From an uncultured Pseudomonadota bacterium (GTDB taxonomy: Bacteria; Pseudomonadota; Gammaproteobacteria; Ga0077536): a stretch of 64,000 nt of DNA. The DNA lies in NCBI GenBank assembly GCA_903825645.1, contig CAIKBL010000042.1:117289-181288 (forward strand). Direction: 5' to 3'. Each line of letters opens with the position of its first letter. The stretch's first letter is position 1. Both the position numbers and the translations under genes were made by a program. Below, one piece after another: positions 33-44,869 of the stretch. The notes under the pieces are model-generated. The model was given only the letters and a program-made list of their open reading frames with translations, searched no databases and was not told the DNA's origin.

Positions 33-1232
33 CTACGGGCTGGTCCGCCAGCGCAGCCGAAGATCTTTCATCGTCCTTAACTGCCCGCTTTCATACAGGG
101 GCTGGGTATCGGGTTCCAGTTCGAATTCCGGGATCTGTCGCAGGAACTCTTCGATGGCGATGCGGATTTCCAGGCGCGCGAGGTGCTCGCCAAGACAGCG
201 ATGTGGGCCCACCCCGAAGGCGGTGTGGACCACTTCGTGGCGATGAACATCAAAATCCTGCGGGTTCGAACACACGTCAGGATCCCGCGAGGCCGCCGCG
301 TAGTTCAGCGCAATCCGATCGCCCGGCTTCAGGGTGATCGCGCCGACGACGACGTCCGCGCGCACCGAGCGCCCGACCGCCACTACGGGGGCATACAGCC
401 GTACGGTTTCCTCGACGGCTGTCGGCAGCGTGGCCGGCTCCTCGCGTAGCATACGCCGCAGGGCGGGGGCCTGGGCGAGCGCCAGAATGGCCCCCGACAT
501 GGCATGGGTGGTCGTCGCGAGCCCGCCAAACACCACATCGAGCGCGACGTGCACTTTGTCTGCCCACGAGCAGGGCTCACCCACCTCATTTTCCACGCCC
601 GCTAAGATCACATCCACCAAATCACCCCGCGGCGGCTGGGTCGCGCGATCTTCGAGAAAATGTTGGAGATAGGTATACACCCGGCCGAACGCCGGTGTCC
701 GCGCCGCCATGTCGCCGAAGGAATACACATCAATATCAGCGAAAAGGGTTGGCAGATCCGCAACCGGCACCGGCAGGATGTGCCTGAACAGGATAAGGCC
801 GGGTAATTGGGCGGCGAAGTCGGCGACATATTCGCACTGCCCGCGGGCGGCAAAACGGGTGATCAGCGCGCCCGCATATTGGCGCGCCGCGGCCTCAAGC
901 GGGGCCACGGCCTCCGCGCTGAAAAACGGGTTGAGCACCCGCCGCCAGTGGCTGTGGTAAGGCGGATCCAGATCTTCCGGCAGAATCTTGATGTTGCCTT
1001 CGGGCGGATTCAACATCCAGCCATCGGCGCTGCTGAACGTGCGCCAATCCTGCGCACAACGGCGCACGTCCTGATAGCGGTTGAACACCGTGTAACCCGC
1101 CCCCCTGTCGCTGTGCGCCACCGGACACTGGGCCACCAGGTGATCCATGACCGCCTCGAAGCGCTCGGCAAAAACAGGATCGTCAATATCGAACTGGGTA
1201 TGCAGGCGATTGAATTCGTCGGAATTTTTCAC
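33..1232 (-). CDS. cytochrome P450 monooxygenase
   Basis: 399-aa ORF. Heme-thiolate signature FGVGPHRCLG near the C-terminus. Full-length P450 architecture. Confidence 0.85.
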   Translation of the reverse strand: MKNSDEFNRLHTQFDIDDPVFAERFEAVMDHLVAQCPVAHSDRGAGYTVFNRYQDVRRCAQDWRTFSSADGWMLNPPEGNIKILPEDLDPPYHSHWRRVLNPFFSAEAVAPLEAAARQYAGALITRFAARGQCEYVADFAAQLPGLILFRHILPVPVADLPTLFADIDVYSFGDMAARTPAFGRVYTYLQHFLEDRATQPPRGDLVDVILAGVENEVGEPCSWADKVHVALDVVFGGLATTTHAMSGAILALAQAPALRRMLREEPATLPTAVEETVRLYAPVVAVGRSVRADVVVGAITLKPGDRIALNYAAASRDPDVCSNPQDFDVHRHEVVHTAFGVGPHRCLGEHLARLEIRIAIEEFLRQIPEFELEPDTQPLYESGQLRTMKDLRLRWRTSP

Positions 1233-1426: not shown

Positions 1427-2281
1427 ATGAAAACCCCCAGGGATCTTGAAGCATTAATCGAAGACGGTGTGATCGACGAAGTCTTGTGGCCGCTTAGAAG
1501 CGGCAAGGAAGCCGCGGTCTATGCCGTGCGGGTCGGCACCGAGGTGCGCTGCGCAAAGGTCTACAAGGACCTGGCGCAGCGCAGCTTCCAGGCGCGGGCC
1601 CAATATCAGGAAGGGCGTAAGACACGCGGATCCCGACAGGCCCGCAGCATGGGTAAGGCGTCCCGTTTCGGACGACGGGAGTCGGAGACGCAGTGGAAGA
1701 ACACCGAAGTCGATGCCTTATACCGGTTGGCCAAAGCCGGAGTCTGCGTGCCGACGCCGCACGGCTTTTTCAATGGGGTGCTGATTATGGCGCTCGTCAC
1801 GGACGCGGAAGGTCAGGCGGCCCCGCGATTGGGCGAAGTGGACCTCAGCGCGGAGGAGGCCCGGGACTTTCATCACCGCTTGATTGGGGATGTAGTGCGG
1901 ATGCTCGCCCTGGGTCTTATCCATGGCGACTTATCCGAATACAACGTACTGGTCGCGCCCGACGGCCCGGTGCTCATCGATTTTCCGCAGGTGGTGAATG
2001 CCGCTGGCAACAATGCGGCGCGCGCGCTTTTGCTGCGCGACGTCCATAACTTGCGCGACACGTTGGGACGCTTCGCCCCCGAACTCAATGACACCCATTA
2101 CGGCGAAGAAATGTGGGCGCTCTACGAGACAGGCGAATTGCGGGCGGACAGCGTCCTGACCGGTCAGTTTGTCTTTGACACCGAGCTGGCCGATGTGGAG
2201 ACGATCATGCTGTCAATTGAGGATGCCCGACAGGAGGCTGAAGCGCGAGAGCTCGGGCGTAGCGCCAGCGCCGGTGACTAA
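1427..2281 (+). CDS. RIO1-family serine protein kinase
   Basis: 284 aa. Catalytic loop LIHGDLSEYNVLV and metal-binding IDFPQVV segments characteristic of RIO kinases. Confidence 0.65.
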   Translation: MKTPRDLEALIEDGVIDEVLWPLRSGKEAAVYAVRVGTEVRCAKVYKDLAQRSFQARAQYQEGRKTRGSRQARSMGKASRFGRRESETQWKNTEVDALYRLAKAGVCVPTPHGFFNGVLIMALVTDAEGQAAPRLGEVDLSAEEARDFHHRLIGDVVRMLALGLIHGDLSEYNVLVAPDGPVLIDFPQVVNAAGNNAARALLLRDVHNLRDTLGRFAPELNDTHYGEEMWALYETGELRADSVLTGQFVFDTELADVETIMLSIEDARQEAEARELGRSASAGD

Positions 2282-3341: not shown

Positions 3342-4364
3342 CTAGCCGGCCGGATTGAACGCGGCCGCGGCGAAAACCTCAGCACCCCGCATAAATTCCG
3401 CAGCACTCGTGGCCTGCGGGCTGATGACGAGGGTATCGATGCCCTGTGCGTAGTGGGCGCGTAACTGGGCGTGGCAGTGGGCGACGGATCCAAACAGGAA
3501 AATACGGGACACCATCTCATCCGTGATGGCACGGGTGACGCGCGCCCGATCGCGCGCGGCATAGCCTGCCCGCACCTCGGCGACCGCCTCCGGGTAGCCC
3601 AGCTGTTCGATCATCGTCTGATAGACCGGTGCCGAGGCATAGAAGGCAAAATGTTGTCGGAAGAATTCACGTGCGTGGACTTCTTCTTCGGGACTGGAGA
3701 TCACGACCACCGCGCGACGTTTCACAATTTCGAGATCTTCCGCCCGACGCCCACGCCGCTTGGCCCCGAGATCAAGCTGCTCCATCGCCCAAGCCAGCCG
3801 ATCGAGGGGGGTGAAGTCATTGAGGACGACGCCATCGGCGACTTCACCGGCGAGTTGCAACATCTTCGGCCCCATCGCCCCCAGATGAATCGGTAAGGCG
3901 ACACCCGGCAGGGCCTGCAAACGAAAGCCCTCACTGCGGAGTAGCTCGCCTTTGAAATGCGTTTTTTCGCCGGCGAAAATCTGTCGCAGCAGGGCGACGT
4001 ACTCTCGCACGTGCGTCAATGGACGCTTGAAGGGTACGCCGTACCAGCGATCGACCATGTTGCTCGTGGACGAGCCCAGGCCAAGCACAAAACGGCCGGG
4101 CGCCTGCTCGGTAATCACACTGACGCCGGTAGCCAGCACCGCGGGGGGGCGATTGAACACCGGGACCACCCCGGTGCACAGCCGGATGCGGCGGGTCGAC
4201 ACCGCCAGCGCAGCCGCCAGCGAAATCGGATCTTGCATGCCCTCTGCATCCGGAAACCAGAGATCGTCAAAACCAGCGTCCTCCGCCCACCGGCCCCGGG
4301 CAAAACCCGCATCCAGACCGGGCACCGGCCACAGCATCAGACCAAGGCGTTTCGAGCGTGTCAT
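3342..4364 (-). CDS. LLM-class (luciferase-like) flavin-dependent oxidoreductase
   Basis: TIM-barrel luciferase-like N-terminus (GLMLWPVP...FDDLWFPD). About 340 aa. Start chosen at MTRSKRLGLML; the ORF extends to 4415. Confidence 0.75.
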   Translation of the reverse strand: MTRSKRLGLMLWPVPGLDAGFARGRWAEDAGFDDLWFPDAEGMQDPISLAAALAVSTRRIRLCTGVVPVFNRPPAVLATGVSVITEQAPGRFVLGLGSSTSNMVDRWYGVPFKRPLTHVREYVALLRQIFAGEKTHFKGELLRSEGFRLQALPGVALPIHLGAMGPKMLQLAGEVADGVVLNDFTPLDRLAWAMEQLDLGAKRRGRRAEDLEIVKRRAVVVISSPEEEVHAREFFRQHFAFYASAPVYQTMIEQLGYPEAVAEVRAGYAARDRARVTRAITDEMVSRIFLFGSVAHCHAQLRAHYAQGIDTLVISPQATSAAEFMRGAEVFAAAAFNPAG

Positions 4365-4431
4365 CAGGGACTCTCCCGTGGCGTGCACCGGCGCCCCTTG
4401 GCGCACCGCAGACATCGATTAAATTGAGATC

Positions 4432-5076
4432 TCAGACTACCCCAGCCGAGAATACCGACAAATCCTGCGGGCCACCGCGCTCGAGTGCCCGACGATAAGC
4501 CGGCCGCGCGCGAAGGCGCGCCAGATAGGCCTGTATGGCGGGCAACGCCTTCGTTCGACCCCGCGCCTCGCTGAATTCAAGCGACCAGCCGAGGTTGATA
4601 TCCGCCGCCGAAAAGCCGCTTGGCAGAAGGTAGGCCTGATCCGTTAACGCCGCTTCGACGTACTGATGGTTTTTGGTGATTTCGACCTCGAAGAAGCTCA
4701 TGAAAACGGCGTTGCCGCCGCCGGTCCAGGCGTAGATGAGATCAACGCCGAGCCCGGGGAACAAGGTTCCTTCCGAGAAGGCGAGCCATTGCAGATATTG
4801 GCCGTAATCGGGCGCGCTGGGCGCCCGGCTGAGGCGTCCACCGGCACACACCTGGCAGATGTATTCGATGATGGCATCGGTTTCGATGATCGTCTGCCCA
4901 TCGTGCTCAATGGTCGGCGCCTTGCCGAGGACATGCACGGCCCGCAGCGAATCCGGGGCCCGCAGTGTTTCCGCATCCCGCTGGTGGTGCACCAGCGTGT
5001 AATCGATACCGAGCTCTTCGCATAACCACACGATGCGTTGCGAACGGGAGTTATTGAGATGATGCACGGTCAGCAT
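4432..5076 (-). CDS. glutathione S-transferase
   Basis: 214 aa. Thioredoxin-like N-terminal GST domain (RSQRIVWLCEELGIDY) plus a C-terminal helical domain. Confidence 0.8.
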   Translation of the reverse strand: MLTVHHLNNSRSQRIVWLCEELGIDYTLVHHQRDAETLRAPDSLRAVHVLGKAPTIEHDGQTIIETDAIIEYICQVCAGGRLSRAPSAPDYGQYLQWLAFSEGTLFPGLGVDLIYAWTGGGNAVFMSFFEVEITKNHQYVEAALTDQAYLLPSGFSAADINLGWSLEFSEARGRTKALPAIQAYLARLRARPAYRRALERGGPQDLSVFSAGVV

Positions 5077-5105
5077 AATTTTTCCTCGAAAAAAATAAGG
5101 GTGCG

Positions 5106-6338
5106 CTAACGACGATGGGCTTTTAATTTGACCGGCAGATGTTTAAGTCCGCCGACGAACGTGGACTGCACCCGTTCGACGGGTCCGGAGATTTCGATGC
5201 CGTCATGGCGTGACAGCAGGGCTTCCAGGGCAAGCCGGATCTCCAGCTTGGCGAGCGGTCCGCCGAGACAAAAGTGCGGCCCCGCACCGAAACCCAGGTG
5301 AAGATTCGGATGCCGGGTCACATCAAAATCATAAGGCCGCGCGAACACTGCCGCGTCCCGGTTGGCCGACGGAAACCACAGCATGACCCGCTCGCCTTCG
5401 CGAATGCGTTGCCCCGCCAATTCGGTATCTGCGGTGGGCGTGCGCATCAGCGAGATGACCGGGTCCGACCAGCGGATAATTTCTTCTGCCGCGAGCCGCA
5501 GACGGCGCGGATCTTCCCGCAGCAGCGCCATTTGTGCCGGATGTTCCAGCAGCGCCAAGACGCCCCCAGAAAACGCATTGCGGGTGGTTTCAAAGCCGGC
5601 CAGGATAATCTGGGCCGCGTTGTGCGCCACCATCGAGGCGGGCAACGCCTGTGCCTCGAGGGTGGCATTGGCCAGCAGGGTGAGGGGATCCGAGCGCGGA
5701 CATCCCCGCCGCTCCGCGGCCCGCCGCAGGCCATAGGCATGGAGCTGCTCGAAGCCGTAACGCACGGTTTGTGCCACGGTGCCCTGCCGGTATTCGGGAT
5801 CGGTGCCTCCGATCGCCATTTTGCCCCAGACGAGCATGTCGTCCCAATCCTCCGCCGGCAATTCGAGGATGTCACAAATCACCGCCATCGGAATGCGCAC
5901 CGCGAGATCGGCGACCAAGTCGATTTCGCCATGAGCGGGGATGTCATCGAAGATTTTGCCGATGAGCGCCCGCGTCCGCGCCTCGCTACCGGCCAACGCC
6001 TTGGGCAGAAAAGGGGCCGAGATGACCTTGCGGACGGCCGTATGCCGGGGCGCATCAATCATGGCGACGTTCTGACCCACCCCCCAGGCCTCTGCCGCGA
6101 TCGCCGCCATCTCGGCGTCTATCACGGGCGCCACGCCTTCGCGTTCAGAACTGAACAGATTCGGCGCGTTCAGGATGGTTTTCAGATCCGCGTGGCGGAA
6201 GATGGACCAGTAACCTCGACCATCGGGGCTCTGCGTCCAGTGGATCGGATCTTCGGCGCGTAGGCGGTCAAACAACGCGTAATGCGCGCCGGTGGCAAAA
6301 AACGCCGGATCGTTCAGCTTCTCGTCGACGTTTATCAC
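5106..6338 (-). CDS. cytochrome P450 monooxygenase (paralogue A)
   Basis: 410 aa. FGAGPHFCLGGPLAKLE heme-binding loop. N-terminal 190 aa nearly colinear with the P450 at 40310..41563. Confidence 0.9.
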   Translation of the reverse strand: MINVDEKLNDPAFFATGAHYALFDRLRAEDPIHWTQSPDGRGYWSIFRHADLKTILNAPNLFSSEREGVAPVIDAEMAAIAAEAWGVGQNVAMIDAPRHTAVRKVISAPFLPKALAGSEARTRALIGKIFDDIPAHGEIDLVADLAVRIPMAVICDILELPAEDWDDMLVWGKMAIGGTDPEYRQGTVAQTVRYGFEQLHAYGLRRAAERRGCPRSDPLTLLANATLEAQALPASMVAHNAAQIILAGFETTRNAFSGGVLALLEHPAQMALLREDPRRLRLAAEEIIRWSDPVISLMRTPTADTELAGQRIREGERVMLWFPSANRDAAVFARPYDFDVTRHPNLHLGFGAGPHFCLGGPLAKLEIRLALEALLSRHDGIEISGPVERVQSTFVGGLKHLPVKLKAHRR

Positions 6339-6424
6339 GCACAGCTCCTCGCCCGGAATCGGGCCAATCCCCCCGGGTTCGCGGGAGTGCCGACTTGAAG
6401 GGCGAAACTAATAATCCCATACTC

Positions 6425-6444
6425 GATTTGTCCGAACAAGTTGA
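6425..6444. promoter_or_regulatory. GntR/FadR-type operator-like palindrome GATTTGTCCGAACAAGTTGA
   Basis: TTGTCCGAACAA near-palindrome (the core on which the GT-N-AC FadR/GntR-type consensus is read) in the divergent P450/GntR intergenic region. A near-identical site lies at 11218..11238. Confidence 0.45.
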
Positions 6445-6534
6445 CTTGTGGCGGACGTGATCCCGCCACGCGGGTGCGTGATGGGCGGCCTCGCGCCGCC
6501 CCCCTCTTCTCGTTGTTCGGACAGGAGCCTGCCC

Positions 6535-7323
6535 ATGTCGACGTCACCGCCGGCCGCGTCCATCACCACCCCAACACCGCGCCGGCGTGGCGCATCGAAA
6601 CACAGTACGGTGGCGGCGCAACTCCTCGAGCAGATCCGATCAGGGCATTTCCCACCTGGCGCACGCCTACCCTCGGAGCCTGACCTGTGTCGCCACTTTG
6701 GCGTAAGCCGACACACCGTCCGAAGCGCCTTACGTTCCCTCTATGAGAAGGGCCTTGTGCTGAGTCAGCAAGGCCGCGGAACCGTCGTCCAAACCGCCGC
6801 GGCGACGCCGCGCTATGCCTTCGCCTGTAACTCGGTTGACGATCTCCTCCAATATGCCGCAGCGGCCCCGCGCGAACTTCGCCAAACGAGTCGGCGCCAG
6901 GTCGATCCGGCGCTTGCCCAATGGCTGGGTTGCGGGCCGGGCGAGGACTGGTGGGAAATGCGGACCTGCCGGATCGAAAAACAAGGCCAGACGGTCATTG
7001 CGGCCTCCCGCATCTACGTGCCCGATCGCTTCGCGGAGGCCGTGGCCGAGCTCGCCACCAGTCCGTTGCCGCTGTTTGCTCTGATCGAACAACGCTACGG
7101 TCATCACATCGCACAGGTTCGGCAGAATTTTTCAGTGGCCCACGCGACCCCGGACGAAGCCACTGATCTCGGGCTGACGGTCGGCGCGGCAGTGATGTGC
7201 GTCGAACGCCGTTTCTTCGACGAGCGTGGCAGCCTGCTGGAAGTGTCCTGTTCGGTCCATCCGCCGCTCGGGTTTCGCTACGAAATGACCGTGCGCCAAA
7301 TCATCGGTCAGGGTAGCGCCTGA
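6535..7323 (+). CDS. GntR/HutC-family transcriptional regulator (wHTH plus UTRA effector domain)
   Basis: N-terminal GntR helix-turn-helix (PSEPDLCRHFGVSRHTVRSALRSL) followed by a UTRA-like C-terminal domain. Start set at MSTSPP within ORF 6448..7323. Confidence 0.75.
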   Translation: MSTSPPAASITTPTPRRRGASKHSTVAAQLLEQIRSGHFPPGARLPSEPDLCRHFGVSRHTVRSALRSLYEKGLVLSQQGRGTVVQTAAATPRYAFACNSVDDLLQYAAAAPRELRQTSRRQVDPALAQWLGCGPGEDWWEMRTCRIEKQGQTVIAASRIYVPDRFAEAVAELATSPLPLFALIEQRYGHHIAQVRQNFSVAHATPDEATDLGLTVGAAVMCVERRFFDERGSLLEVSCSVHPPLGFRYEMTVRQIIGQGSA

Positions 7324-7353
7324 GGCGCCACCCTGACGCTTTCCACGCCCCCA

Positions 7354-10300
7354 CTAGGCCTCGGCGGCGCGGGCTAACGCCTCGCCGAGATCGAGCGAAC
7401 CATAGCCCAACGTCCGCTCGAGATCGTGCCAGACCGGCAAGGCAGCCCGCAGGGCCGCCTGCTTCACATGACCAAAGCCCCGAATGCTGTCCACCACCTG
7501 CGCCAGACTGACCAGCTGGGAGTAGCTCGCTGGGGTCAGGTGTTGCAAGCCCATTTCAATCGACTGCCGGTAGGCTTCAATCAGACGCCGCTCCAACTTG
7601 CGCTCTGCCGTATAGCCGAAGGGATCGAAGGGTGTCCCCCGGAGACCTTTAAAGTGCTGTAACACCTGTAGCACCGGGCGCAACCAGGGGCCAAACGCCT
7701 GCTTCTGGGGCCGCCCCGCCGCATCGCGGCGCCCCAGTAGCGGGGGCGCAAGGTGAAAATTAAGCTTCGGGCTCCCCCCAAACGCGGTGTTCAGTTGCTG
7801 CTGAAAGGCCGGGAGGGAAAAAAGCCGCGCCACCTCATACTCATCCTTGTAGGCAAGCACCCGGTAGTACCCTTCCGCCACCGCCTGCGTCAGGGCATAG
7901 TCCTGCGCCGCGCTATCGCGCTGGCGCACCGTCTCCACCAATTGACGGAAGCGGTTGGCGTAACCCCGGTGCTGATAGGCGCAAAGCCGTGTCGCCAAGG
8001 CCTCCACGCGGTCTTGCAGCCGCGTCAGCGGATCGACCGCCGCGGCCGCCTCGGTCTCGGCGGTCACTGCGAGGGCGTCAACGCGCGCCACCGCGGCCCG
8101 ACGACCCAACGTAAAGGCCTGAATATTGTCCTTGACCGCCACACCATTCAGATCAATGGCCCGCAGCAAAGCGCGGGCACTGAGCGGAATGTGGCCGCGC
8201 TGAAAGGCAAACCCCAGCAGTAGCAGATTCCCGCTCTGGGTATTGCCCAGCAAAGATTCCGCCAGATCGGTGCTATCGAGCGCGGTATAGCGACCACTGA
8301 CTGCGGTGGTCAGCAAGTCGACGAGCTCAGCCCGGGGAAACGTCCATTCGCGATCCTGCGCAAAAGCCCCGGTCGGTTGCTCGAAGGTGTTGACCACCGC
8401 GACCGTGCGATCGGCATGGATGCGGGCGACGACTTCGGGATCGCCCGCCGTGATGAGATCATAGGCGAGCAACAGATCGGCTTCGCCGGCGGCGATACGC
8501 TGGCCGCGCAGATGGGTGTCATCATCGGCAATGCGGATGTGGGACATCACCGCGCCGTTCTTCTGGGACATGCCGGTCATATCGAGCACGCTGACTCGCT
8601 TGCCCTCCAGATGGGCCGCCATGCCGAGCAAGGCGCCGACGGTAATCACGCCGCTGCCGCCGACCCCGGTGACCAGGATATTGAAGGGGCGCGGGAGTGT
8701 CGGCACGGGCGGCTCTGGGAGCTCAATTTCCGCGCTCAGTACCGACACGTCGGCGCGCCGCCGCGCCGGGGTTTCGACCTCGACGGTCACAAAGCTAGGG
8801 CAAAATCCCTCGACGCAGGAAAGATCGCCATTACACGCATCCTGATCGATGGCCCGCTTACGTCCCAATGTCGTCTCGAGCGGCAGGATTGCCGTGCAGT
8901 TCGACGCCCGACCACAGTCCCCGCAGCCCTCGCAGATCTCGGGATTGATAAACACCCGGCGAGGCGCTTTAGGAAACTGTCCCTGTTTGCGTCGGCGCCG
9001 CTTCTCGGCCGCGCAGGTCTGATCGTAAACCAGCACGCTGACCCCGGGATAATCCCGCAAGGTCTGCTGCACCGCCTCGAGCTCGGTGCGGTCATGCACG
9101 GTCACCAGCGGGGCTGACATCGCCTGCGCACGGTGCGGCGCTGGGTTTTCGGCCACGACCGCGATTCGGCGCACCCCTTCGGCCGCCACCTGATGGACGA
9201 TGTCGCGCACCGATAGCGGGCCGTCAATCGGTTGTCCGCCCGTCATAGCGACCGCATCGTTGAATAGAATTTTGTAGGTAATGTTGACCCCGGCGGCGAC
9301 CGCCGCCCGGATCGCGAGACTCCCTGAATGGTAGTAAGTCCCGTCGCCGAGGTTCGCGAAGACATGCTCAAGCGTGGAGAAGGGAGCCTGTCCGATCCAG
9401 GTCACCCCTTCACCCCCCATCTGGGTCATGGTCCGGTTCGACTCAGGGAAGATGGCGGTCGCCATCACGTGGCAGCCAATCCCAGCCAGCGCAATGCTGC
9501 CCTCGGGTGTTCGCGTCGAACGGTTATGGGGACAGCCCGCGCAGTAGTAAGCGGATCGCGGCGGGGGCTTAAAGGTATGCACCAAGGCCGCCTCCTTGGC
9601 TTCCAGAAAATGGAGCCGGGCCGTGATGGCGTCACTGTGGTGAAAACGCTGTAGGCGATTGGCCAGCACCCGGGCTATCTGCGCAATCGAAAAATCGCCC
9701 TTCGCCGGCAGCAGCCATTCCCCACGGGGGGCCACCCACTCGCCGTGCTCGTCGAATTTTCCGATCACCCGCGGGCGCACATCGTCGCGCCAGTTGTAGA
9801 GCTGCTCTTTCAGTTGATATTCAATAAGCTGGCGTTTTTCCTCCACCACCACGATTTCTTCGAGTCCAGTGGCGAATTCACGGATGCTCTCCGCTTCCAG
9901 TGGCCAAGGCATCGAGACCTTGAACAGCCGAAGCCCGATCTGCTGGGCCGCGCGCTCGTCGATGCCGAGCTCTTCCAGTGCCTCGAGCACATCCACATAC
10001 GACTTGCCGGAGGCTACGACGCCGAGGCGGGCCGGCCGCGAATTCCACACAATCCGATTGAGATGATTCTCCCGGGCGTAGGCGAGCGCCGCATAGATTT
10101 TAAAATCCTGCATCAGCGCTTCCTGCTGGCGTGCCTGCCGCCCCAGGGGCTCGTTCGAGAGGCGCGCGTTCAGGCCTTGTGGCGGCAAATTCGGATAATC
10201 GGGGAACCGTGTCTCGACGAGGAAGGGATCCGCACTCACGCTCGCAGAGGACTCGACGGTATCGGCCAGCGCCTTGAACCCCACGGCACACCCGGAGAAG

Positions 10301-10878
10301 CGAGACATCGCCCAGGCATGCAGGCCGAGGGTCAGGTATTCGTGCACATCGCATGGATACAGCACCGGAATCATCGCAGCGGCGAACTGGTGATCGCTCT
10401 GGTGGGGCAGGGTCGAGGAGTAGGCCCCATGATCATCACCGGCCACGAGGATCACCCCGCCGTGGCGCGAGGTACCGGCATGATTCAGGTGTTTGAACAC
10501 ATCGCCGCAGCGATCAACGCCGGGCCCCTTGCCGTACCACAAAGCGAAAACGCCGTCATAACGGGCCGGTCCCAGCAGGGCGACTTGCTGGGTGCCCCAC
10601 ACGGCCGTCGCGGCAAGCTCTTCGTTCACGGCGGGCCAGAACTTGATGTGGTGCCGACCGAGATGGGGAGCGGCTTTCCAGGCGGCCTTGTCGAGCCCGC
10701 CGAGCGGTGAGCCGCGGTAGCCGGAAATAAAGCCGGCCGTATTGAGGCCGTCGGCGACGTCGCGCAGGCGCTGCAAGATCGGCAAGCGAATGAGCGCTTG
10801 CACGCCGCTGAGGTAAATTCTGCCCGCCGTTGCGGTGTACTTATCGTCAAGCGTCAGATGTGGGTCGATGACCGACAT
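7354..10878 (-). CDS. indolepyruvate ferredoxin oxidoreductase family protein (fused alpha/beta 2-oxoacid:ferredoxin oxidoreductase)
   Basis: 1174 aa. TPP/pyrimidine-binding N-terminal region, ferredoxin-like CxxCxxCxxxC (CEGCGDCGRASNC), C-terminal IorB-like region. Confidence 0.85.
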   Translation of the reverse strand: MSVIDPHLTLDDKYTATAGRIYLSGVQALIRLPILQRLRDVADGLNTAGFISGYRGSPLGGLDKAAWKAAPHLGRHHIKFWPAVNEELAATAVWGTQQVALLGPARYDGVFALWYGKGPGVDRCGDVFKHLNHAGTSRHGGVILVAGDDHGAYSSTLPHQSDHQFAAAMIPVLYPCDVHEYLTLGLHAWAMSRFSGCAVGFKALADTVESSASVSADPFLVETRFPDYPNLPPQGLNARLSNEPLGRQARQQEALMQDFKIYAALAYARENHLNRIVWNSRPARLGVVASGKSYVDVLEALEELGIDERAAQQIGLRLFKVSMPWPLEAESIREFATGLEEIVVVEEKRQLIEYQLKEQLYNWRDDVRPRVIGKFDEHGEWVAPRGEWLLPAKGDFSIAQIARVLANRLQRFHHSDAITARLHFLEAKEAALVHTFKPPPRSAYYCAGCPHNRSTRTPEGSIALAGIGCHVMATAIFPESNRTMTQMGGEGVTWIGQAPFSTLEHVFANLGDGTYYHSGSLAIRAAVAAGVNITYKILFNDAVAMTGGQPIDGPLSVRDIVHQVAAEGVRRIAVVAENPAPHRAQAMSAPLVTVHDRTELEAVQQTLRDYPGVSVLVYDQTCAAEKRRRRKQGQFPKAPRRVFINPEICEGCGDCGRASNCTAILPLETTLGRKRAIDQDACNGDLSCVEGFCPSFVTVEVETPARRRADVSVLSAEIELPEPPVPTLPRPFNILVTGVGGSGVITVGALLGMAAHLEGKRVSVLDMTGMSQKNGAVMSHIRIADDDTHLRGQRIAAGEADLLLAYDLITAGDPEVVARIHADRTVAVVNTFEQPTGAFAQDREWTFPRAELVDLLTTAVSGRYTALDSTDLAESLLGNTQSGNLLLLGFAFQRGHIPLSARALLRAIDLNGVAVKDNIQAFTLGRRAAVARVDALAVTAETEAAAAVDPLTRLQDRVEALATRLCAYQHRGYANRFRQLVETVRQRDSAAQDYALTQAVAEGYYRVLAYKDEYEVARLFSLPAFQQQLNTAFGGSPKLNFHLAPPLLGRRDAAGRPQKQAFGPWLRPVLQVLQHFKGLRGTPFDPFGYTAERKLERRLIEAYRQSIEMGLQHLTPASYSQLVSLAQVVDSIRGFGHVKQAALRAALPVWHDLERTLGYGSLDLGEALARAAEA

Positions 10879-11217
10879 GGGAGTTCTCCAAAATTGTGTT
10901 CTGGGTGGAGCAGGCGAAGAGCATCGGGTGGATGCTCGCCAGCCTCGGGCGTTCAGATCTTCGGATAGAAAATCGTCGCGCGGGGTCGATTGCCCTCGGC
11001 GGTAGGCGCGGGGTGATCGAAGGGGCCAACACGTTAATAAAGAGACACGGTCTTGCTGGGCAAATCACCTCCGGAGTAAAGCATGCGGCCGACATCCGGG
11101 CCATCGATGGCAGAGTATCGCAGGCGCTCCGGTTCGTACAACGTGGAAACCCGCCGTGGGGACCGCGAAACGCCAGCAGCCGGCATCAGCTGCGGCGATC
11201 GCCGCCGGCCCCAGCTT

Positions 11218-11238
11218 GATTTGTCCGGACAAGATCGG
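11218..11238. promoter_or_regulatory. GntR/FadR-type operator-like perfect palindrome GATTTGTCCGGACAAGATCGG
   Basis: TTGTCCGGACAA perfect 12-bp palindrome about 130 bp upstream of the citryl-CoA-lyase-like gene, between divergent genes. Matches the site at 6425. Confidence 0.45.
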
Positions 11239-11364
11239 GCATTCTCGCGCCAGCCGTCAGGGCCTCCCGAACTTCACTCAACTCCCGCGCGCGCCGCCGC
11301 CAGGCGATCTCGCGCCCCGCCGTGCGGGCGCCGCACCGCTGGCCAGACCACAGGAACTACTCGC

Positions 11365-12132
11365 ATGTATAAAAAAGCCAATCCGGTCACCCGTCTGTGC
11401 ACGAGCGACGTCGATAACATCTTGATCCGAGGTAGAAATCTGTGTGACGAGCTGATCGGGAAAGTGACGTTTACCGATTTCATTCTGTTTCATTTCTTCG
11501 GTAAAGATCCGACTCCCATGCAGCGTACGATTGTGGACGCGGTCATGGTGTGCATCATGGAGCACGGCATGACTCCCTCCGCCGTTGCCACGCGCATCAC
11601 CTACCTCGGCGCCCCCGAATCGCTCCAGGGCGCAGTGGCCGCCGGACTCCTCGGCGCCGGGACGCGGTTCGTCGGCGCGGCCGATGAAGCCGCTAAACTC
11701 CTCACGCGCATCACCGCCCAGCCGCTCGCCGCGCGGGCCGCGGAAGCCGCCGCAATCGCACAGGAATACACCGCTGCCAAGAAATTCCTGCCGGGTTATG
11801 GTCACCCGATTCACGTCAACGGCGATCCGCGCGTGACCCGACTCAACGCAGTGGCGCGTGCGGCCGGCGCCCAGGGCGACTATCTCGATGCCATGTTTCT
11901 GCTCGGGGACGCCATCAAGGTCGCCAGCGGTAAAAATATCGTGATCAACGTCAATGCCGCGATCGGCGCCGTGCTGCTCGAAGCCGGGATCCCGCCCAGT
12001 ATCGCGCGCGGTTTCAATCTCATCGCCCGTTGTGCCGGTCTGGTCGGTCACCTGCTGGAAGAGCAGGAAGAGCCGGCCGGCTACCACATCTGGCAACTGG
12101 CGGACGAAGGCGTGCCCTACGAGGCACCCTGA
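11365..12132 (+). CDS. citryl-CoA lyase / citrate-synthase-like small domain protein
   Basis: About 255 aa from MYKKANPV. The GYGHPIH motif resembles the citrate synthase / ATP-citrate-lyase C-terminal fold. Upstream part of ORF 11083 is an Arg-rich GC artefact. Confidence 0.6.
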   Translation: MYKKANPVTRLCTSDVDNILIRGRNLCDELIGKVTFTDFILFHFFGKDPTPMQRTIVDAVMVCIMEHGMTPSAVATRITYLGAPESLQGAVAAGLLGAGTRFVGAADEAAKLLTRITAQPLAARAAEAAAIAQEYTAAKKFLPGYGHPIHVNGDPRVTRLNAVARAAGAQGDYLDAMFLLGDAIKVASGKNIVINVNAAIGAVLLEAGIPPSIARGFNLIARCAGLVGHLLEEQEEPAGYHIWQLADEGVPYEAP

Positions 12133-12181
12133 TCGCGCGCGCCCATTCTTGCCTTACGACGGCCCTCGGAGTAACCACACC

Positions 12182-14494
12182 ATGACCCAGACCAAAACGT
12201 CACCTGAACACCAGGAACTCGAAACCATGCTGCGCGACAGCGCCGCCGACTTTTGCGCACGGGCGCTGAAGCGGGAGCGTCTGCGGGCGCTCCGCGGGGC
12301 GGCCCCCGCCTATGATCGGGCACTCTGGCGCCAAATGGCCGAACTCGGCTGGACCGAAATTTTGGTCCCCGCCACACAGGGCGGCCTCGGTCTCGGCGTG
12401 ACGGCCATTGCCGTGGTGTCCCGCAAGCTGGGCAGCGTCATCGCCCCGGAGCCGCTGCTCGAAACCGCGGTGGCGGCCGTGAGCGTGCTCTGCAGTCTGG
12501 GCGATCCGAGTCCGTGTCTGCCCGCCCTGACCGCCGGCACGCACGTGATCGTACCCGCCCTCGGCCAGGTCGGCGGGGACGCTTTTGCCGCCCTACACGC
12601 CACCGCGGTCGATCAATCGCATACCTTGGACGGCACCGTGACGGCACTGCCTCTGGGTCCGGACGCCGATCAGTGGTTGCTGCCAGCAACGCTGGCCGGG
12701 CAGCCGGCCTGGTTCCTCGTCAGCGCCCAGGCCCCCGGCGCCCACTGCGTCTCCCGAGAACTGGCCGACGGCAGCCGGGACGGCCATCTCACCCTGACCG
12801 CGTGCGCCGCCCAACTGCTCGGGCACGGCGAGCCTGCCCGCGCCGCGCTGGCGCTTGCCCGCACCCGAGTTGAAATCGCCTCCGGCGCCTATCTGCTCGG
12901 GCTGGCGGAAACGCTGTTCGCCATGACGCTCGATTATGTCGGGACCCGCCGCCAGTTCGGACAGGCCATCGGCAGCTTCCAGGTGCTGCAACACCGACTG
13001 GTCGACTTGTATATCGGGCTGCGGCTCACGGATGCGGTGCTCTCCGAGAGCTGTGCCACCATCGCGGAGGGGGCGGATGCACAAACCGCCGCCAGTCGCC
13101 TGCGGTACCGCGCCTGCGAAACCACCCTGGCGGTTATCCGGGAGGCCGTACAGATGCACGGCGCCATGGGCTACACCGACGAATGCGATGTCGGGCTCTA
13201 TCTGAACCGGGCGCTGGTGGTGATCACCCGTTACGGCAATGCCCGCGAACACGTCGCCGCGCTATCCGGCAACGGCACCCTACTCGCCGGGAGCGCGCAA
13301 GGGGCGGTCCTCCCCACGGTCAACATCAACTGCGCGACCCCCTCCGACGGTTGGAACAGTCTCGACAACGACACCTTCAGAGCGATCGTGCGCGGTTGGC
13401 ACGAAACACACTATCCGAGCGCGCTGCGCAATCCGCGCTCGCGCCCCCGCTGGACGCAATGCCGCGACTGGTATGCCACCCTGTATGCGCGCGGCTGGGC
13501 CGCGCCGGGCTGGCCGGCCGAGCATGGCGGGATGGGGCTCAGTCCAGACAAGCTCCTCATCTTCATCGAAGAGCGAGAACGCTGGGGGGTGGCGCGCACG
13601 CCGGATCAAGGGATCGTCATGGTCGGGCCGGTGTTAATGCAGCACGGCACGCCCACACAGCTCGCGCAGTATCTCCCCAAAGCCTTAAGCGGCGAGCACA
13701 TCTGGTGTCAGGGTTACTCGGAGCCGAACGCCGGATCTGACTTGGCCTCGTTGCGCACGAGCGCCGTGCGGGAAGGCGACGAATTCGTCATCAATGGACA
13801 GAAGATCTGGACCACCATGGCGCAAGATGCGACCCATATGTTCTGCCTGGTGCGAACCGATCCCCAAGCCAAACCCCAGCGGGGAATAAGCTTCGTGCTC
13901 ATCGACTTCAAGAGCCCGGGGATCACGGTGCGCCCCATCCGCAACATCTCGGGAGATTCGGAATTCTGCGAAGTCTTTCTCGACAATGTCCGCATCCCGG
14001 TCGACAGCGTAGTCGGCGCGCTGCATGACGGCTGGACCATTGCCAAAGCCTTGCTGGGCTTCGAGCGCCTGTTCATCGGCAGCCCCAAATATGGCCAGTA
14101 CGCATTGAACCGGCTACGCAGTCTTGCCGCGGCCCGCGGCCTGCTGGCCGATCCGGTGTTCGTCGACAAACTCACGCGCTTCACGTTGGACGTCGCTGAT
14201 CTGGAGGCCCTGTACAAGGTATTTGCGGACGTCGTAAAGCGCGGCGAGACCCTCGGTGCGGATGTCTCAACGCTCAAAATCTGGGCCAGTGAAACTTTTG
14301 CGCGGCTCAGCGAATTTCTGATCGAATCCGCCGGCCAGATGGGCGCCCAAGTGGGCGACATTGCGTTCGGGGACACTACTGTCGATGTGATGACGCAGTA
14401 TTGGAACGCGCGACCCACGACCATCTATGGCGGCAGTAACGAAATCCAGCGGAACATCATCGCCAAGCAGGTGTTGCGGCTGCCGGCGAATTAG
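12182..14494 (+). CDS. tandem-fused acyl-CoA dehydrogenase (two complete ACAD folds in one 770-aa polypeptide)
   Basis: First half 1-390 and second half 390-770 each contain ACAD N-alpha, beta-barrel and C-alpha domains (e.g. QGYSEPNAGSDLASL, FVINGQKIWTT, IYGGSNEIQRNIIA). Start ATG preceded by GGAG. Confidence 0.8.
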   Translation: MTQTKTSPEHQELETMLRDSAADFCARALKRERLRALRGAAPAYDRALWRQMAELGWTEILVPATQGGLGLGVTAIAVVSRKLGSVIAPEPLLETAVAAVSVLCSLGDPSPCLPALTAGTHVIVPALGQVGGDAFAALHATAVDQSHTLDGTVTALPLGPDADQWLLPATLAGQPAWFLVSAQAPGAHCVSRELADGSRDGHLTLTACAAQLLGHGEPARAALALARTRVEIASGAYLLGLAETLFAMTLDYVGTRRQFGQAIGSFQVLQHRLVDLYIGLRLTDAVLSESCATIAEGADAQTAASRLRYRACETTLAVIREAVQMHGAMGYTDECDVGLYLNRALVVITRYGNAREHVAALSGNGTLLAGSAQGAVLPTVNINCATPSDGWNSLDNDTFRAIVRGWHETHYPSALRNPRSRPRWTQCRDWYATLYARGWAAPGWPAEHGGMGLSPDKLLIFIEERERWGVARTPDQGIVMVGPVLMQHGTPTQLAQYLPKALSGEHIWCQGYSEPNAGSDLASLRTSAVREGDEFVINGQKIWTTMAQDATHMFCLVRTDPQAKPQRGISFVLIDFKSPGITVRPIRNISGDSEFCEVFLDNVRIPVDSVVGALHDGWTIAKALLGFERLFIGSPKYGQYALNRLRSLAAARGLLADPVFVDKLTRFTLDVADLEALYKVFADVVKRGETLGADVSTLKIWASETFARLSEFLIESAGQMGAQVGDIAFGDTTVDVMTQYWNARPTTIYGGSNEIQRNIIAKQVLRLPAN

Positions 14495-14583: not shown

Positions 14584-15825
14584 TTATCGGTAGTGGGGCA
14601 TGACCTCGCGGCCAAAGCGCTCCAACATCCGCTTCATGTCATCCATCGGCAAGTAGCCTTGATCCGACTGCCAGATGAACCATTCTGGGTTCGCGGTCTC
14701 CACCAGCAAGTCCATTTCCTTGCGCACATCTTTTTCATTCCCGACCAAGCAGAAATGGGATTTTTCGAAGCGCTCCATCGTCGCTTCCGATACCGGCAAG
14801 GGCTGGTTCGGGAAGTTGATGTCATCCTCAGGCAACCGGAAGGCGTCGGTGAAACCGAAGTCGTGCGCCCAGCCCGGCCAGCCCGTGCCCATCAAGCCTT
14901 TCATGGCCAGATCGCGCGCCTGCTGACGGGTGTCGGCCATGTAGACGCCCCGGAACACCCCAAAGTTCTCGCCAAGGGCGAGCGCGCGACCATGCAGGGC
15001 GGCCTCTTCGACATGGACCTCGGCAAAACGCCGCAAAATCGCCGGATCGGAGGTCAACACCGTCGGGATTGAGCCTTCCTTCGCCGCCCAGCGGATGGTG
15101 CTTTCGCTCTGGGAGAATGCCTGGAAAAGTGGCGGATGCGGCTTCTGGTAGGGCTTCGGCACCACATCAATCAGCTGGATGTTGCCAGCATCATCGACTT
15201 CCCCTGGCGAGCCGTATTTACGGGTCCAGTTGTGCGCCGGCCACGGGGTCCCGGTCTCGTAGGGATAAGGATATTCGTAGTACTTGCCCTTATAGCGGAA
15301 ACCGCCGTCTTTCCAGGCCAGCTTGATGATGTCAAAGACTTCCTGAAACGCTTCGCGGTTCACCGCATCATTGGTCGGTTGGCTTTCCTTGGTATTCATG
15401 GCGGCCGCACCGACGTGCAGATGTTGGGCCATCTGGTTCAGCCAGCGCGCCTGGTAACCCCGGGCGAAGCCGACAATCGTGCGTCCCTTGGTGATTTGAT
15501 CAAGCCAGGCGATTTCCAGGGCGAGTCGCAGTGGATCCCAACCCGCGAGGACATAGCCGATCGGACCGGCCTTGATAGTTTTGGTGTTGGCCAGAACATG
15601 CTGCGTCAGCAGCGGCAGGCTGCCCATTTCACCGCCCTCGGTGTGCAGGTGATGTTCGGGATAGGTCACTGCGGTGAAGCCGAGATCTTCGGCCATCTGC
15701 GAGAGCTCGACGACCTCGTCGAGCATCTGTTGGAACTTGTCCGTGCGACTGGCAATGGGGCGCAGTTTTTCACGCTCGTCCAGGGTTGCCGGAATCGCCG
15801 GGTAGAAGAAAAAAACAAATTTCAT
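14584..15825 (-). CDS. LLM-class flavin-dependent oxidoreductase
   Basis: 413 aa luciferase-like monooxygenase fold (TAVTYPEHHLHTEGG...). Confidence 0.8.
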   Translation of the reverse strand: MKFVFFFYPAIPATLDEREKLRPIASRTDKFQQMLDEVVELSQMAEDLGFTAVTYPEHHLHTEGGEMGSLPLLTQHVLANTKTIKAGPIGYVLAGWDPLRLALEIAWLDQITKGRTIVGFARGYQARWLNQMAQHLHVGAAAMNTKESQPTNDAVNREAFQEVFDIIKLAWKDGGFRYKGKYYEYPYPYETGTPWPAHNWTRKYGSPGEVDDAGNIQLIDVVPKPYQKPHPPLFQAFSQSESTIRWAAKEGSIPTVLTSDPAILRRFAEVHVEEAALHGRALALGENFGVFRGVYMADTRQQARDLAMKGLMGTGWPGWAHDFGFTDAFRLPEDDINFPNQPLPVSEATMERFEKSHFCLVGNEKDVRKEMDLLVETANPEWFIWQSDQGYLPMDDMKRMLERFGREVMPHYR

Positions 15826-16268: not shown

Positions 16269-18107
16269 ATGAATCAAGACCCCGCGCGGCCCGCGGTCGA
16301 CAACATCACTTATGGCGACGTCGCCTCCGTCTCGGGCGCACCCCTGTCGGCGATCCGCGAGGAAGACCGCGGACACGCTAAGCGCGGCGCGCAAATTCTC
16401 GCCGCGGCCCTGCGTGCCGAAGGCGTCGAATGTCTGTTCGGTTATCCGGGCGGCGCCAATCTCGAAATCTTCGATGTGCTGTCCGAATTCGGCATCCTGT
16501 GTTACCGCACCGAACACGAGCAGGGCGCCATTCATGCGGCCCAGGGCTACGCGCGCGCCACCGGTCGGGTCGGCGTGTGTCTCGCGACCTCTGGCCCCGG
16601 CGCCTGCAATCTAGTCACGGGTCTTGCCGATGCGAAAAGTGACTCGACGCCTATTGTCGCCATCACCGGCAACGTCCCCAGCTACCTCCTCGGCAAAAAT
16701 GCCTTCCAGGAGGCTGACATCGTCGGCATCACGCGGCTGATCACCAAGATCAGCATTCTGGTCGGCAGTGTGGCCGAGATCCCGGCGGCCGTGCGCAAAG
16801 GGTTTGCGCACGCCGTCATCAATCGCCCCGGGCCGGTGCTGATTGATCTCCCCAAAGACATCCAGCAGCATTTTCCACGCGATCCCGAAGGCCGTTATGT
16901 CCCACCTCGGATCCCGGCGGTGATCGATTCACCCGAAGTCGTGGTGGGCGCCATTCCAGAGTCCCAGCTGAAGCAATGCTTGCGCATGATCGCCGAAGCC
17001 GAGCGCCCCGTGATCTATGCCGGTGGTGGCATCGTCTCGAGCGGCACGGAAGCACGCCTCGTCGCCCTCGCGGACAAACTCGGCTGCCCGGTGACCACGA
17101 CGATCATGGGCTTGGGCGCGGTGCCTTCCGACCACCCCCTGTGGTTACATGTGCTGGGCATGCACGGCAGCTACACCGCGAATGTGGCCGTCAACGAGGC
17201 CGATCTGGTGATCGCCCTGGGTGTGCGGTTTGACGATCGCGTGACGGGCAACGTGAAGGAATTCATCAAGGATGGCCAGATCATCCATATCGACGTCGAT
17301 CGCGCCGAACTTAATAAGAATAAGGGCGTGACGCTCGGCATCGCGGCCGATCTCAGCACGGCCCTCGAACAGTTGATCGAGGCCGCCGTGCCCGGCGACT
17401 ACGCCGCATGGCGGCGACGCCTCGAGGCGATGAAAGCGCAATACCCGCTCAAGGCCCGCACCCGCGAAATCCTCGGCGGGCCGGCGGCCATCGAGCTGCT
17501 CTCGGATATGACGGCGGGTGACGCGCTGGTGACCGTCGGCGTCGGACAACACCAGATGTGGGCCATGCAGCACTACGCCATCAATCGCCGGCGCTCCTTC
17601 CTGTCCAGCTCCGGCTTCGGCACCATGGGCTACGGGCTGCCCGCCGCCATCGGCGCCAAGGTGGGCTGTCCAGATCGGCTCGTCATCGATATCGACGGCG
17701 ACGGCAGCCTCAACATGAGCATTCACGAGCTCTCCACCTGCCACCGTTATGGCATTGGCGTGAAAATCGTGTGCATCAATAACCAGTGGCTGGGGATGGT
17801 GCGTCAGTGGCAGGACATGATCTATTCGGGACACCGGGCTAATTCCTCGCTCGGCGATCCGATGGCGGTGAAGGCCGTCAGCGATGACGACATTTATCCC
17901 GATTTCGTGACCATTGCGGCCGGTTACCGAATCAAGGCCGAACGCGTCAGCACGGCGCGCGATCTGCCGGCGGCCTACGCACGCCTGCTGGCCGATCCGC
18001 AGGAGCCCTATCTGCTCGATGTCATTGTCGATCGCGAGCAGAACGTCTACCCGATGATTCCGGCGGGCGGCAGCTATCGCGACATCATTCTGGAAGGCGA
18101 CGGTTAA
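16269..18107 (+). CDS. thiamine-pyrophosphate enzyme of the acetolactate synthase (ALS) large-subunit family
   Basis: 612 aa. Pyr domain (GYPGGANLEIFD, TSGPGACNLVTGLADA), central domain and PP domain with TPP GDG...N motif (DGDGSLNMSIHEL). Confidence 0.85.
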   Translation: MNQDPARPAVDNITYGDVASVSGAPLSAIREEDRGHAKRGAQILAAALRAEGVECLFGYPGGANLEIFDVLSEFGILCYRTEHEQGAIHAAQGYARATGRVGVCLATSGPGACNLVTGLADAKSDSTPIVAITGNVPSYLLGKNAFQEADIVGITRLITKISILVGSVAEIPAAVRKGFAHAVINRPGPVLIDLPKDIQQHFPRDPEGRYVPPRIPAVIDSPEVVVGAIPESQLKQCLRMIAEAERPVIYAGGGIVSSGTEARLVALADKLGCPVTTTIMGLGAVPSDHPLWLHVLGMHGSYTANVAVNEADLVIALGVRFDDRVTGNVKEFIKDGQIIHIDVDRAELNKNKGVTLGIAADLSTALEQLIEAAVPGDYAAWRRRLEAMKAQYPLKARTREILGGPAAIELLSDMTAGDALVTVGVGQHQMWAMQHYAINRRRSFLSSSGFGTMGYGLPAAIGAKVGCPDRLVIDIDGDGSLNMSIHELSTCHRYGIGVKIVCINNQWLGMVRQWQDMIYSGHRANSSLGDPMAVKAVSDDDIYPDFVTIAAGYRIKAERVSTARDLPAAYARLLADPQEPYLLDVIVDREQNVYPMIPAGGSYRDIILEGDG

Positions 18108-43818: not shown

Positions 43819-44733
43819 TCAGGCGAGGCCAAGGTGCGGTTTCACCCACGCCGCGAGTTTCGCAATCGCGTCATCAGCTTCAGGTGCCCGACCTGCCATG
43901 AACTGGAAGACGTGCTGCATTTCAGGGTAGACATCACAGTGGCAGTCCACGCCGGCCGCTTTGGCGCGTTCGGTAAAGCGCAGCGAATCATCCAGCAGTG
44001 CCTCATACCCGCCGACCTGAATGTAAATGGGGGGCAGGCCTTTGCAGTCCGCGTACAGGGGATTGACGAGCGGATCTTTGGGCGACGTCTTGCCGATGTA
44101 CATCTGGACCATGCTGCCGGAGACCGCCGGCGTGACCAGTCGATCGACCTTAGCGTTGGTCGTCATGCTGGCCCCGAGCCCTTCCATGTCGTACCACGGG
44201 GACATCGGCATCAGGGCGGCCGGGAGCGGCAGTTTTTTGTCGCGGGCAGCCAGGACTACCGCCGTGCACAGATTGCCGCCGGCGGAATCGCCCACGGTCG
44301 CAATGTGTGCGGGCTTGATACCCTGTCCGAGCAGCCATTCGTAGGCCTTGAGACAATCACTCACCTGGGTCGGATGTTGTTGCTCCGGCGCGCGGCCGTA
44401 GTCGACGATCAGCGCCCGGCAACCCACCTGCTTAGCAATGTGGGCAAACAGCTTGCGATGGGTAAAACGATCGCCGGTGACACAGCCACCGCCGTGCGCG
44501 GACAGCAGCACGCGATCTTCGCGACACCCTTTGGGCACCGCCCACAGACACGGGATCCCGTCGGCGTCCGCTTCCAGGTAATCCACCCCACCCGGCTCGG
44601 CCGCCAGATCTCCACACTGGCCGAACAGATCGCGCAGAGTGTCGAGCGACATCCCCGGGTCTGCCGTCATGGCGGTAATAAAACTGTCGAACAGGCGATC
44701 AATCGCGGCGGCTTGTGGACTGGCCATGGTCAT
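43819..44733 (-). CDS. alpha/beta hydrolase, HSL-type esterase/lipase
   Basis: HGGG oxyanion motif (SAHGGGC) and GDSAGG nucleophile elbow. Confidence 0.85.
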   Translation of the reverse strand: MTMASPQAAAIDRLFDSFITAMTADPGMSLDTLRDLFGQCGDLAAEPGGVDYLEADADGIPCLWAVPKGCREDRVLLSAHGGGCVTGDRFTHRKLFAHIAKQVGCRALIVDYGRAPEQQHPTQVSDCLKAYEWLLGQGIKPAHIATVGDSAGGNLCTAVVLAARDKKLPLPAALMPMSPWYDMEGLGASMTTNAKVDRLVTPAVSGSMVQMYIGKTSPKDPLVNPLYADCKGLPPIYIQVGGYEALLDDSLRFTERAKAAGVDCHCDVYPEMQHVFQFMAGRAPEADDAIAKLAAWVKPHLGLA

Positions 44734-44869
44734 CTCCCCTCAAATGGTTGGAATAGTCAATTCAGTGGCCGGACTATACGGGGTGTGCACTGCGATGGAG
44801 AAGCACCCGACGCCCTATTTTCGATGCTCGACACTCAACTTTGGCCCGGCACTGCCGCTCCCTTGCAGC

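Follow-up and report, generated by a model that had tools for sequence, protein, structure and literature searches.

A conserved palindrome marks putative operators of a HutC-subfamily GntR regulator beside catabolic genes of an uncultured gammaproteobacterium

We analysed a stretch of 64,000 nucleotides (the window) from an uncultured gammaproteobacterium (GenBank assembly GCA_903825645.1, contig CAIKBL010000042.1, positions 117,289 to 181,288). It encodes a GntR-family transcriptional regulator (6535–7323, plus strand) that is accompanied by several intergenic copies of one palindrome. We propose, with a probability of roughly 0.85, that three of these copies (A, B and C) and perhaps a weak fourth one (D) are operators at which the regulator, a member of the HutC subfamily, represses its own gene and adjacent catabolic genes. 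The motif itself, its positions and its conservation together with the regulator gene and with a gene for a citryl-CoA-lyase-like protein are directly established.

Two similar sequences had been described in the initial annotation, and its coordinates are exact: GATTTGTCCGAACAAGTTGA occupies 6425–6444 in the divergent region between a P450 gene and the regulator gene, and GATTTGTCCGGACAAGATCGG occupies 11218–11238 in the divergent region between a gene of the indolepyruvate-ferredoxin-oxidoreductase (IOR) family and the lyase-like gene. A common core of 16 in 17 nucleotides with a perfectly palindromic centre had been claimed for them. We count 15 identical positions out of 16 within GATTTGTCCGnACAAG, and the perfect palindrome holds for TTGTCCGGACAA (11221–11232) but not for TTGTCCGAACAA (6428–6439), which differs from it by one base. 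The list of two sites was also incomplete, as B and the weak candidate D have to be added. No strand is assigned to any of the four.

A likeness of two unrelated intergenic sequences that happen to contain a short palindrome might arise by chance, and counts within the window are compatible with this: 157 direct pairs of 16-mers differ at no more than one position, compared with 64–82 (about 70) in Markov shuffles, and a 12-mer search with up to two mismatches returned 3 matches, all intergenic and one of them B, where 2.2 were expected. Such pairs being common, the 15/16 identity was dropped as significant evidence. The motif is significant because of independent comparative evidence, not because of pairwise identity. 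A position weight matrix (PWM) trained on other loci only ranks 11219, 6426 and 6511 as the top three positions of the window, with 21.7, 20.9 and 15.7 bits; the null maxima for the best, second and third score in 100 Markov simulations were 18.7, 15.4 and 13.2. All three positions are intergenic and flank the regulator gene or the lyase-like gene.

Searching with the regulator protein gave 26 loci (identified by L numbers below), 21 of them with a homologue of 41–70% identity. The homologue loci come from metagenome-assembled genomes (MAGs) of uncultured Gammaproteobacteria/Pseudomonadota or from unclassified metagenome contigs. With a PWM made from the two window sites alone, 15 of 20 orthologue loci have their best match at the equivalent place, between 23 and 135 bp ahead of the GntR start. 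For L014, the top match precedes the lyase-like gene by 74 bp, and the runner-up is at –66 of GntR. Across the window and the 26 loci (450 kb), all strong matches (at least 15 bits) except one are intergenic. They border on the GntR gene or the lyase-like gene, with another nearby gene taking this place in two distant relatives; the sole stray match (L002:11742) is within a glutamate-dehydrogenase gene. The neighbours of the regulator vary from locus to locus (luciferase-like monooxygenase, Baeyer-Villiger monooxygenase (BVMO), esterase, thiolase-like protein or P450), and the site remains with the regulator. It recurs upstream of the genes for the lyase-like protein and a double acyl-CoA dehydrogenase (ACAD) in L001 and L014, and in alignments of the window with L001 the operators fall in the only long conserved intergenic blocks. 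The initial annotation had named absence of the motif upstream of orthologues as an outcome that would speak against its proposal; the site is found there in most related loci. The comparative data effectively refute a chance resemblance, whose probability we regard as negligible.

It is also hardly conceivable that the repeats are left over from a duplicated promoter cassette or a small mobile element, or that they form an RNA hairpin. A and C do share some flanking bases (CTyGATTTGT...ACAAGwT), but their likeness stops about 3 nt outside the palindrome, and across loci the palindrome alone is conserved. A loopless 12-nt palindrome is unable to fold stably, and neither an Rfam match in 6000–11700 nor a terminator-like site at the positions in question was detected.

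Operator A (ATTTGTCCGAACAAGT, 6426–6441) is the distal site of a pair in the P450/GntR spacer and aligns with the conserved site of L001 and L019. Its partner, operator B (CGTTGTTCGGACAGGA, 6511–6526, core TTGTTCGGACAG at 6513–6524), is 85 bp away from A, with 8 bp between its end and the regulator ATG at 6535; L001, L019 and L020 have a site at the equivalent position. Operator C (ATTTGTCCGGACAAGA, 11219–11234) contains the perfect palindrome, is positioned 131 bp upstream of the lyase-like ATG and is part of a block of about 40 nt conserved with L001. Its equivalent in L014 is the site 74 bp ahead of the lyase-like gene. Candidate D (TCCGGTTCGTACAACG, 11128–11143, core GTTCGTAC at 11132–11139) is found 91 bp to the left of C. 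By score alone (10.6 bits) D is within noise; the window/L001 alignment places it onto a strong distal site of L001, TCCTGTCCGTACAAGC. A further operator-like sequence, ACTTGTCCGTGCGACT (15735–15750, 12 bits), located within a luciferase-like gene about 90 nt from its 5' end, was not counted since it is coding and scores at noise level.

The consensus of the motif is wTTGTmCGkACAAg, a 16-bp palindrome with a CG centre in which GT and AC are 4 nt apart. The element GTmCGkAC is present in about 40 sites, and its spacing and M/K positions match the consensus of HutC-subfamily operators, NyGTMTAKACNy (GT-N4-AC), with the central TA exchanged for CG; FadR-type operators have 2–3 nt between GT and AC (PMC4494728). 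The regulator, the presumed binder of A–D, has 262 amino acids (aa) and consists of a winged helix-turn-helix (HTH) domain (PF00392, E 9.4e-21, residues 24–85) and a UTRA domain of the chorismate-lyase fold (PF07702, E 4.8e-18, residues 117–244). FadR models match its HTH only (residues 30–88). Because of the UTRA domain and the 4 nt between GT and AC, we assign the protein to the HutC type. The motif had been called FadR/GntR-type; the family stands, whereas the FadR subfamily has to be abandoned, since the C-terminal domain is UTRA and not FCD and the spacing is 4 nt and not 2–3.

All NCBIfam equivalog scores of the regulator are below the cut-offs: HutC 84.8 vs 220, PhnF 84.4 vs 156.8, Rv0792c 84.1 vs 400 and TreR 72.2 vs 212. 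Judged by its sequence, it belongs to none of the named groups of the HutC subfamily, these four and PhnR included. Its family comprises about 70 protein clusters, all annotated merely as 'GntR family transcriptional regulator', and our literature searches returned no characterised member of this group and nothing specific on the associated enzyme module.

The nearest solved structures are NagR/YvoA from B. subtilis and DasR from Streptomyces. In the NagR–DNA structure Arg48 reads G–4 and Arg38 reads G–5 (PMC4333415). Arg48, like Arg45 of FadR, stands at the N-terminal end of the recognition helix and contacts the G of GT. Arg59 of our regulator (...GVSRHTVR...) is invariant in 12 homologues and, by sequence pattern, is the counterpart of Arg48; the wing glycine is likewise conserved (PMC4333415). 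At the position of Arg38, in contrast, the regulator has Pro49, and base –5 of the motif is T rather than G. The dre sites of NagR and DasR differ from ours in the GG at –5/–4, read by two arginines, and in their TA centre. The effectors of both proteins are amino-sugar phosphates. A contact of His60 (HTH position 39) with the CG centre was considered; it is possible but weakened, because a regulator in L006 has Thr there and yet has CG-centred sites. This locus, from a Solirubrobacteraceae MAG, has two copies of AACGTCATCCTGTYCGTACAG (L006:5395–5410 and 9896–9911); its HutC regulator is a different one (62% identity over the HTH only), encoded beside an FGGY kinase and an amino-acid permease. 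The CG-centred motif type is thus used by another regulon in another phylum.

Pseudomonas HutC is alike in several respects. Its operator is TGTA-N2-TACA (PMC12977541), and it shares with our system the GntR winged HTH and UTRA domains, the TGT-N4-ACA geometry, the location over core promoters and the behaviour of an effector-released repressor. It differs in the A/T operator centre and in its hut genes, as opposed to acyl-CoA and monooxygenase catabolism, and the window protein is far below the HutC cut-off given above. For actinobacterial IolR, also of the HutC subfamily, the predicted Beutenbergia sites are ATGTCCGGACAT and ATGTTCGGACAA (PMC4494728, supplement), with a CG-centred core TGTyCGGACA almost identical to the window motif. 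A CG-centred variant has therefore already been catalogued in this subfamily. IolR, however, belongs to another orthologous group and another phylum, has SRPTAR in its HTH instead of SRHTVR and controls an inositol regulon. MoyR (Rv0792c) of M. tuberculosis, which is among the best NCBIfam matches of the window protein (84 bits, with a cut-off of 400), is also of the HutC subfamily, and its gene forms a divergon with genes for luciferase-like and other monooxygenases. Tetrameric DNA binding has been reported for it, and direct repeats of ACGTATTA have been given as its operator (bioRxiv 10.1101/2025.08.21.671446), whereas the window sites are palindromic.

The closely similar CG-centred motifs of other HutC proteins (IolR ATGTCCGGACAT, the L006 regulator) bear on the question of which protein binds here. 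They would be compatible with a genuine protein-binding site that serves another factor, global or local, and not the adjacent GntR protein. Nevertheless, no gene other than the GntR orthologue is constantly found next to the site across loci of differing content, the geometry fits a HutC protein, and the HTH residues are nearly invariant in the family of the regulator. Another factor is therefore very improbable, and we infer that the adjacent regulator is the binding protein.

The surroundings of the sites were read for promoter elements. A putative gntR promoter (6395–6423, plus strand) consists of TTGAAG (6395–6400), a 17-nt spacer and CATACT (6418–6423), and operator A begins 3 bp past this –10 element, where it would overlap the transcription start. 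TTGAAS-17-CATACT is kept directly before site A in the window, L001 and L019 (TTGAAC in the latter two). An alternative or additional promoter on the minus strand (6411–6439) would have its –35 element TTGTTC (6434–6439) within A and, after 17 nt, its –10 element GATTAT (6411–6416). L001 and L019 conserve these elements equally, and the divergent operon could be transcribed from them. The putative promoter of the lyase-like/ACAD operon (11216–11245, plus strand) is composed of TTGATT (11216–11221), 18 nt that include operator C, and CATTCT (11240–11245). The corresponding block, CTTGATTTGTnCGnACAAG..GGCATTCT, is the only long one conserved between the window and L001 in the IOR/lyase-like spacer, and the site in L014 is flanked by TTGAGT-17-TATCCT.

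Two sites precede the regulator in most loci, and the nearer, proximal one is centred 23–25 bp before the ATG. In nine of them (L003, L004, L007, L008, L010, L015, L017, L021 and L024) the proximal site is placed between TTGnnn and TAnnnT, and TAnnnT ends 6–7 nt before the ATG. No Shine-Dalgarno sequence precedes the regulator ATG in these nine loci (e.g. L007:3985–4023). This layout suggests that in these relatives the gntR mRNA may be leaderless, with the operator in the promoter spacer and the core promoter occupied by the repressor. The order is different in the subclade made up of the window, L001 and L019, namely promoter, site A and then B just before the start codon.

In the mechanism that we propose, a dimer of the regulator would read wTTGTmCGkACAAg through its winged HTH. 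Without inducer, A and B would both be occupied, about 8 helical turns apart. A would lie over the region where transcription from the putative gntR promoter starts as well as over the –35 element and spacer of the putative divergent promoter, and B would be bound just ahead of the gntR start codon, so that both sites together would repress gntR and the divergent P450 operon. C would be occupied too, within the promoter spacer of the lyase-like/ACAD operon. Presumably, a small molecule of the pathway binds to the UTRA domain and frees the DNA. The regulator could instead act at these sites as an activator or dual regulator of the catabolic operons. The distal sites, 63–107 bp upstream of the proximal ones, are positioned compatibly with activation, and the promoter assignments are sequence readings. 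The proximal sites, however, lie within core promoters, either between putative –35 and –10 elements or across the start, and HutC, NagR and DasR are effector-released repressors. We hence consider activation unlikely and infer repression. Taken this way, the system is an ordinary effector-controlled repressor–operator system of the HutC type whose orthologous group is unstudied.

The distances within site pairs fall into classes of 63–64 bp (L017, L003/L004, L016), 74–75 bp (L008/L009, L010, L024–L026), 84–86 bp (L015, A–B of the window, L001/L019, L005), 97–98 bp (L021, L007) and 107 bp (the lyase-like spacer of L001). With about 10.7 bp to the turn, the classes amount to 6, 7, 8, 9 and 10 turns. 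Helical phasing is significant in a Rayleigh-type permutation test (p < 5e-5 for 12 loci; p = 0.004 over the five spacing classes). In L017 both sites are present without a divergent gene, so the distal site is more than an operator for a second promoter. The phasing suggests cooperative binding on one helix face, which may take the form of a small loop or a dimer of dimers. GntR-family proteins are usually described as plain dimers, and to our knowledge a loop-forming dimer of dimers is hardly documented in this family. Higher oligomers have been reported for HutC on hutU promoter DNA (PMC12977541), for MoyR (bioRxiv 10.1101/2025.08.21.671446) and for Atu1419. The phased operator pairs are a simple natural test case for cooperative binding or looping in the GntR family.

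Several observations weigh against our proposal or parts of it. The identity of 15 out of 16 positions between two 16-mers is unremarkable on its own. A generic sigma-70 promoter scan gave no promoter at threshold in 6200–11600, and the promoter assignments are consensus readings for which conservation is the support. Site D is weak and out of helical phase; its distance of 91 bp from C counts either against D or against cooperativity at this place. Three loci with a homologue, L002, L022 and L018, have no site near the gene. L002 and L022 share a co-directional order of nitroreductase, luciferase-like and gntR genes, and the nearby spacers are without a site. L018 (42% identity) is uninformative as a negative control because the operon start is off the contig. 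L023 (45% identity) has one strong site, located in a neighbouring divergent spacer. Finally, control of the IOR gene is not supported by conservation.

The IOR gene (7354–10878, minus strand) encodes a fused protein of 1174 aa (NF009588, 1550 bits), and its membership in the regulon is uncertain. It is present only in the window and in L001, inserted between gntR and the lyase-like gene, and loci without it retain the site before the lyase-like gene. The IOR start is 341 bp from C and 250 bp from D, both of which lie upstream of it, and C is much closer to the lyase-like start. A sequence directly upstream of the IOR start codon, CTCCAAAATTGTGTTCTGGG (10886–10905, minus strand), is near-perfectly conserved with L001; it holds a ribosome-binding site and perhaps another signal.

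The gene identities given in the initial annotation (P450, GntR regulator, fused IOR, citryl-CoA-lyase-like protein and double ACAD) are all confirmed. Of the compact regulon predicted from them, the regulator, the lyase-like gene and the double ACAD are supported by site conservation, whereas the IOR gene is not. The divergent P450 gene had been listed singly; the unit is probably an operon (3342–6338, minus strand) of P450 (5106–6338), GST (4432–5076) and F420-type luciferase-like oxidoreductase (3342–4415) genes, separated by 29 and 16 nt. GST and luciferase-like genes likewise follow the divergent gene in L001 and L019; the divergent unit includes the P450 in the window and L001 and lacks it in L019. 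Regulation of the whole P450–GST–luciferase-like operon is plausible from this arrangement.

The citryl-CoA-lyase-like protein (11365–12132, plus strand, 255 aa) matches the C-terminal part of PF00285 and scores 307.5 bits with NF004868 (cut-off 193); its best match among Protein Data Bank (PDB) entries is citryl-CoA lyase 6hxp. Its gene adjoins GntR orthologues in L001, L013, L014, L015, L017 and the P0020 locus. The fused double ACAD (12149–14494, plus strand, 781 aa) likely starts at TTG 12149, in a reading frame open from 11954. Its N-terminal half is PimD-like and its C-terminal half PimC-like; in the PDB, Tcur3481/3483 (6wy8) and 4x28, both heteromeric steroid ACADs, match the fused protein best. 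Orthologues of 766–782 aa are always encoded 3' of the lyase-like gene.

The regulator co-travels with the lyase-like gene and the fused double ACAD, and often also with an acetolactate-synthase-like enzyme dependent on thiamine diphosphate (ThDP); loci with this gene set are L001, L013, L014, L015, L017, L024–26 and the P0020 locus. In several loci the lyase-like, ACAD and ThDP genes directly follow gntR at its 3' side as a single operon. The variable partners are oxygenases and hydrolases. They comprise luciferase-like monooxygenases (L003, L004, L015), BVMOs (L016, L021, L024), in L013 an esterase and a GMC oxidoreductase, and in L001 and L019 a thiolase-like protein, GST and luciferase-like oxidoreductase. 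No strong site was found in the window before the luciferase-like (14584–15825) and ThDP (16269–18107) genes, which are conserved partners elsewhere. In L003, L004 and L015, homologues of this luciferase-like gene and the regulator gene are divergently arranged. In places the module is decaying: the lyase-like gene has shrunk to a 70-aa open reading frame in L024 (8817–9029), L025 and L026, and the ThDP enzyme of L016 is cut to a 72-aa fragment (10841–11059).

With low confidence, we suggest that the module serves the catabolism of bulky alicyclic or isoprenoid substrates, because of the best matches of the ACAD and the lyase-like protein and because the window also encodes four P450s, a BVMO, short-chain dehydrogenases/reductases (SDRs) and an esterase. 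In a bolder and tentative version, which may well prove wrong, an uncharacterised HutC clade of uncultured Gammaproteobacteria would work through two operators required on the same DNA face (the 6–10-turn ladder), bound by a loop-forming dimer of dimers, and would control a module of lyase-like protein, fused heteromeric-type ACAD and acetolactate-synthase-like ThDP enzyme for such catabolism. For the roughly 70 protein clusters of the family, the analysis yields a candidate operator, a PWM and a core regulon that can be put to the test. It ties the regulator to a recurrent trio of lyase-like, double ACAD and ThDP genes that has no assigned pathway and occurs amid P450s and Baeyer-Villiger and luciferase-like monooxygenases. 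The general understanding of GntR regulators is unchanged; wider interest is confined to the phased pairs and the uncharacterised enzyme module.

A gene of the linalool dehydratase/isomerase family (PF18566, L016:6046–7719) is situated near the regulator and a divergent BVMO gene and hints at monoterpene-type substrates. The four P450 genes of the window are at 33–1232 (minus), 5106–6338 (minus), 18536–19780 (plus) and about 40310–41530 (plus). The last of these paralogues is 73% identical to the regulator-adjacent P450 and follows two SDR genes; no site upstream of it is among the 25 best matches in the window, and the P450 paralogues seem to be under different control. The window contains three more 16-nt palindromes that are perfect or nearly so, CCGCATTGCAATGCGG (60939–60954), GATCTGCCGGCAGATC (56617–56632) and TTTTCGCCGGCGAAAA (3964–3979). 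A RIO-domain kinase (1427–2281, plus strand) and a eukaryotic-type Ser/Thr protein kinase (44639–46135, plus strand) are encoded amid the catabolic genes.

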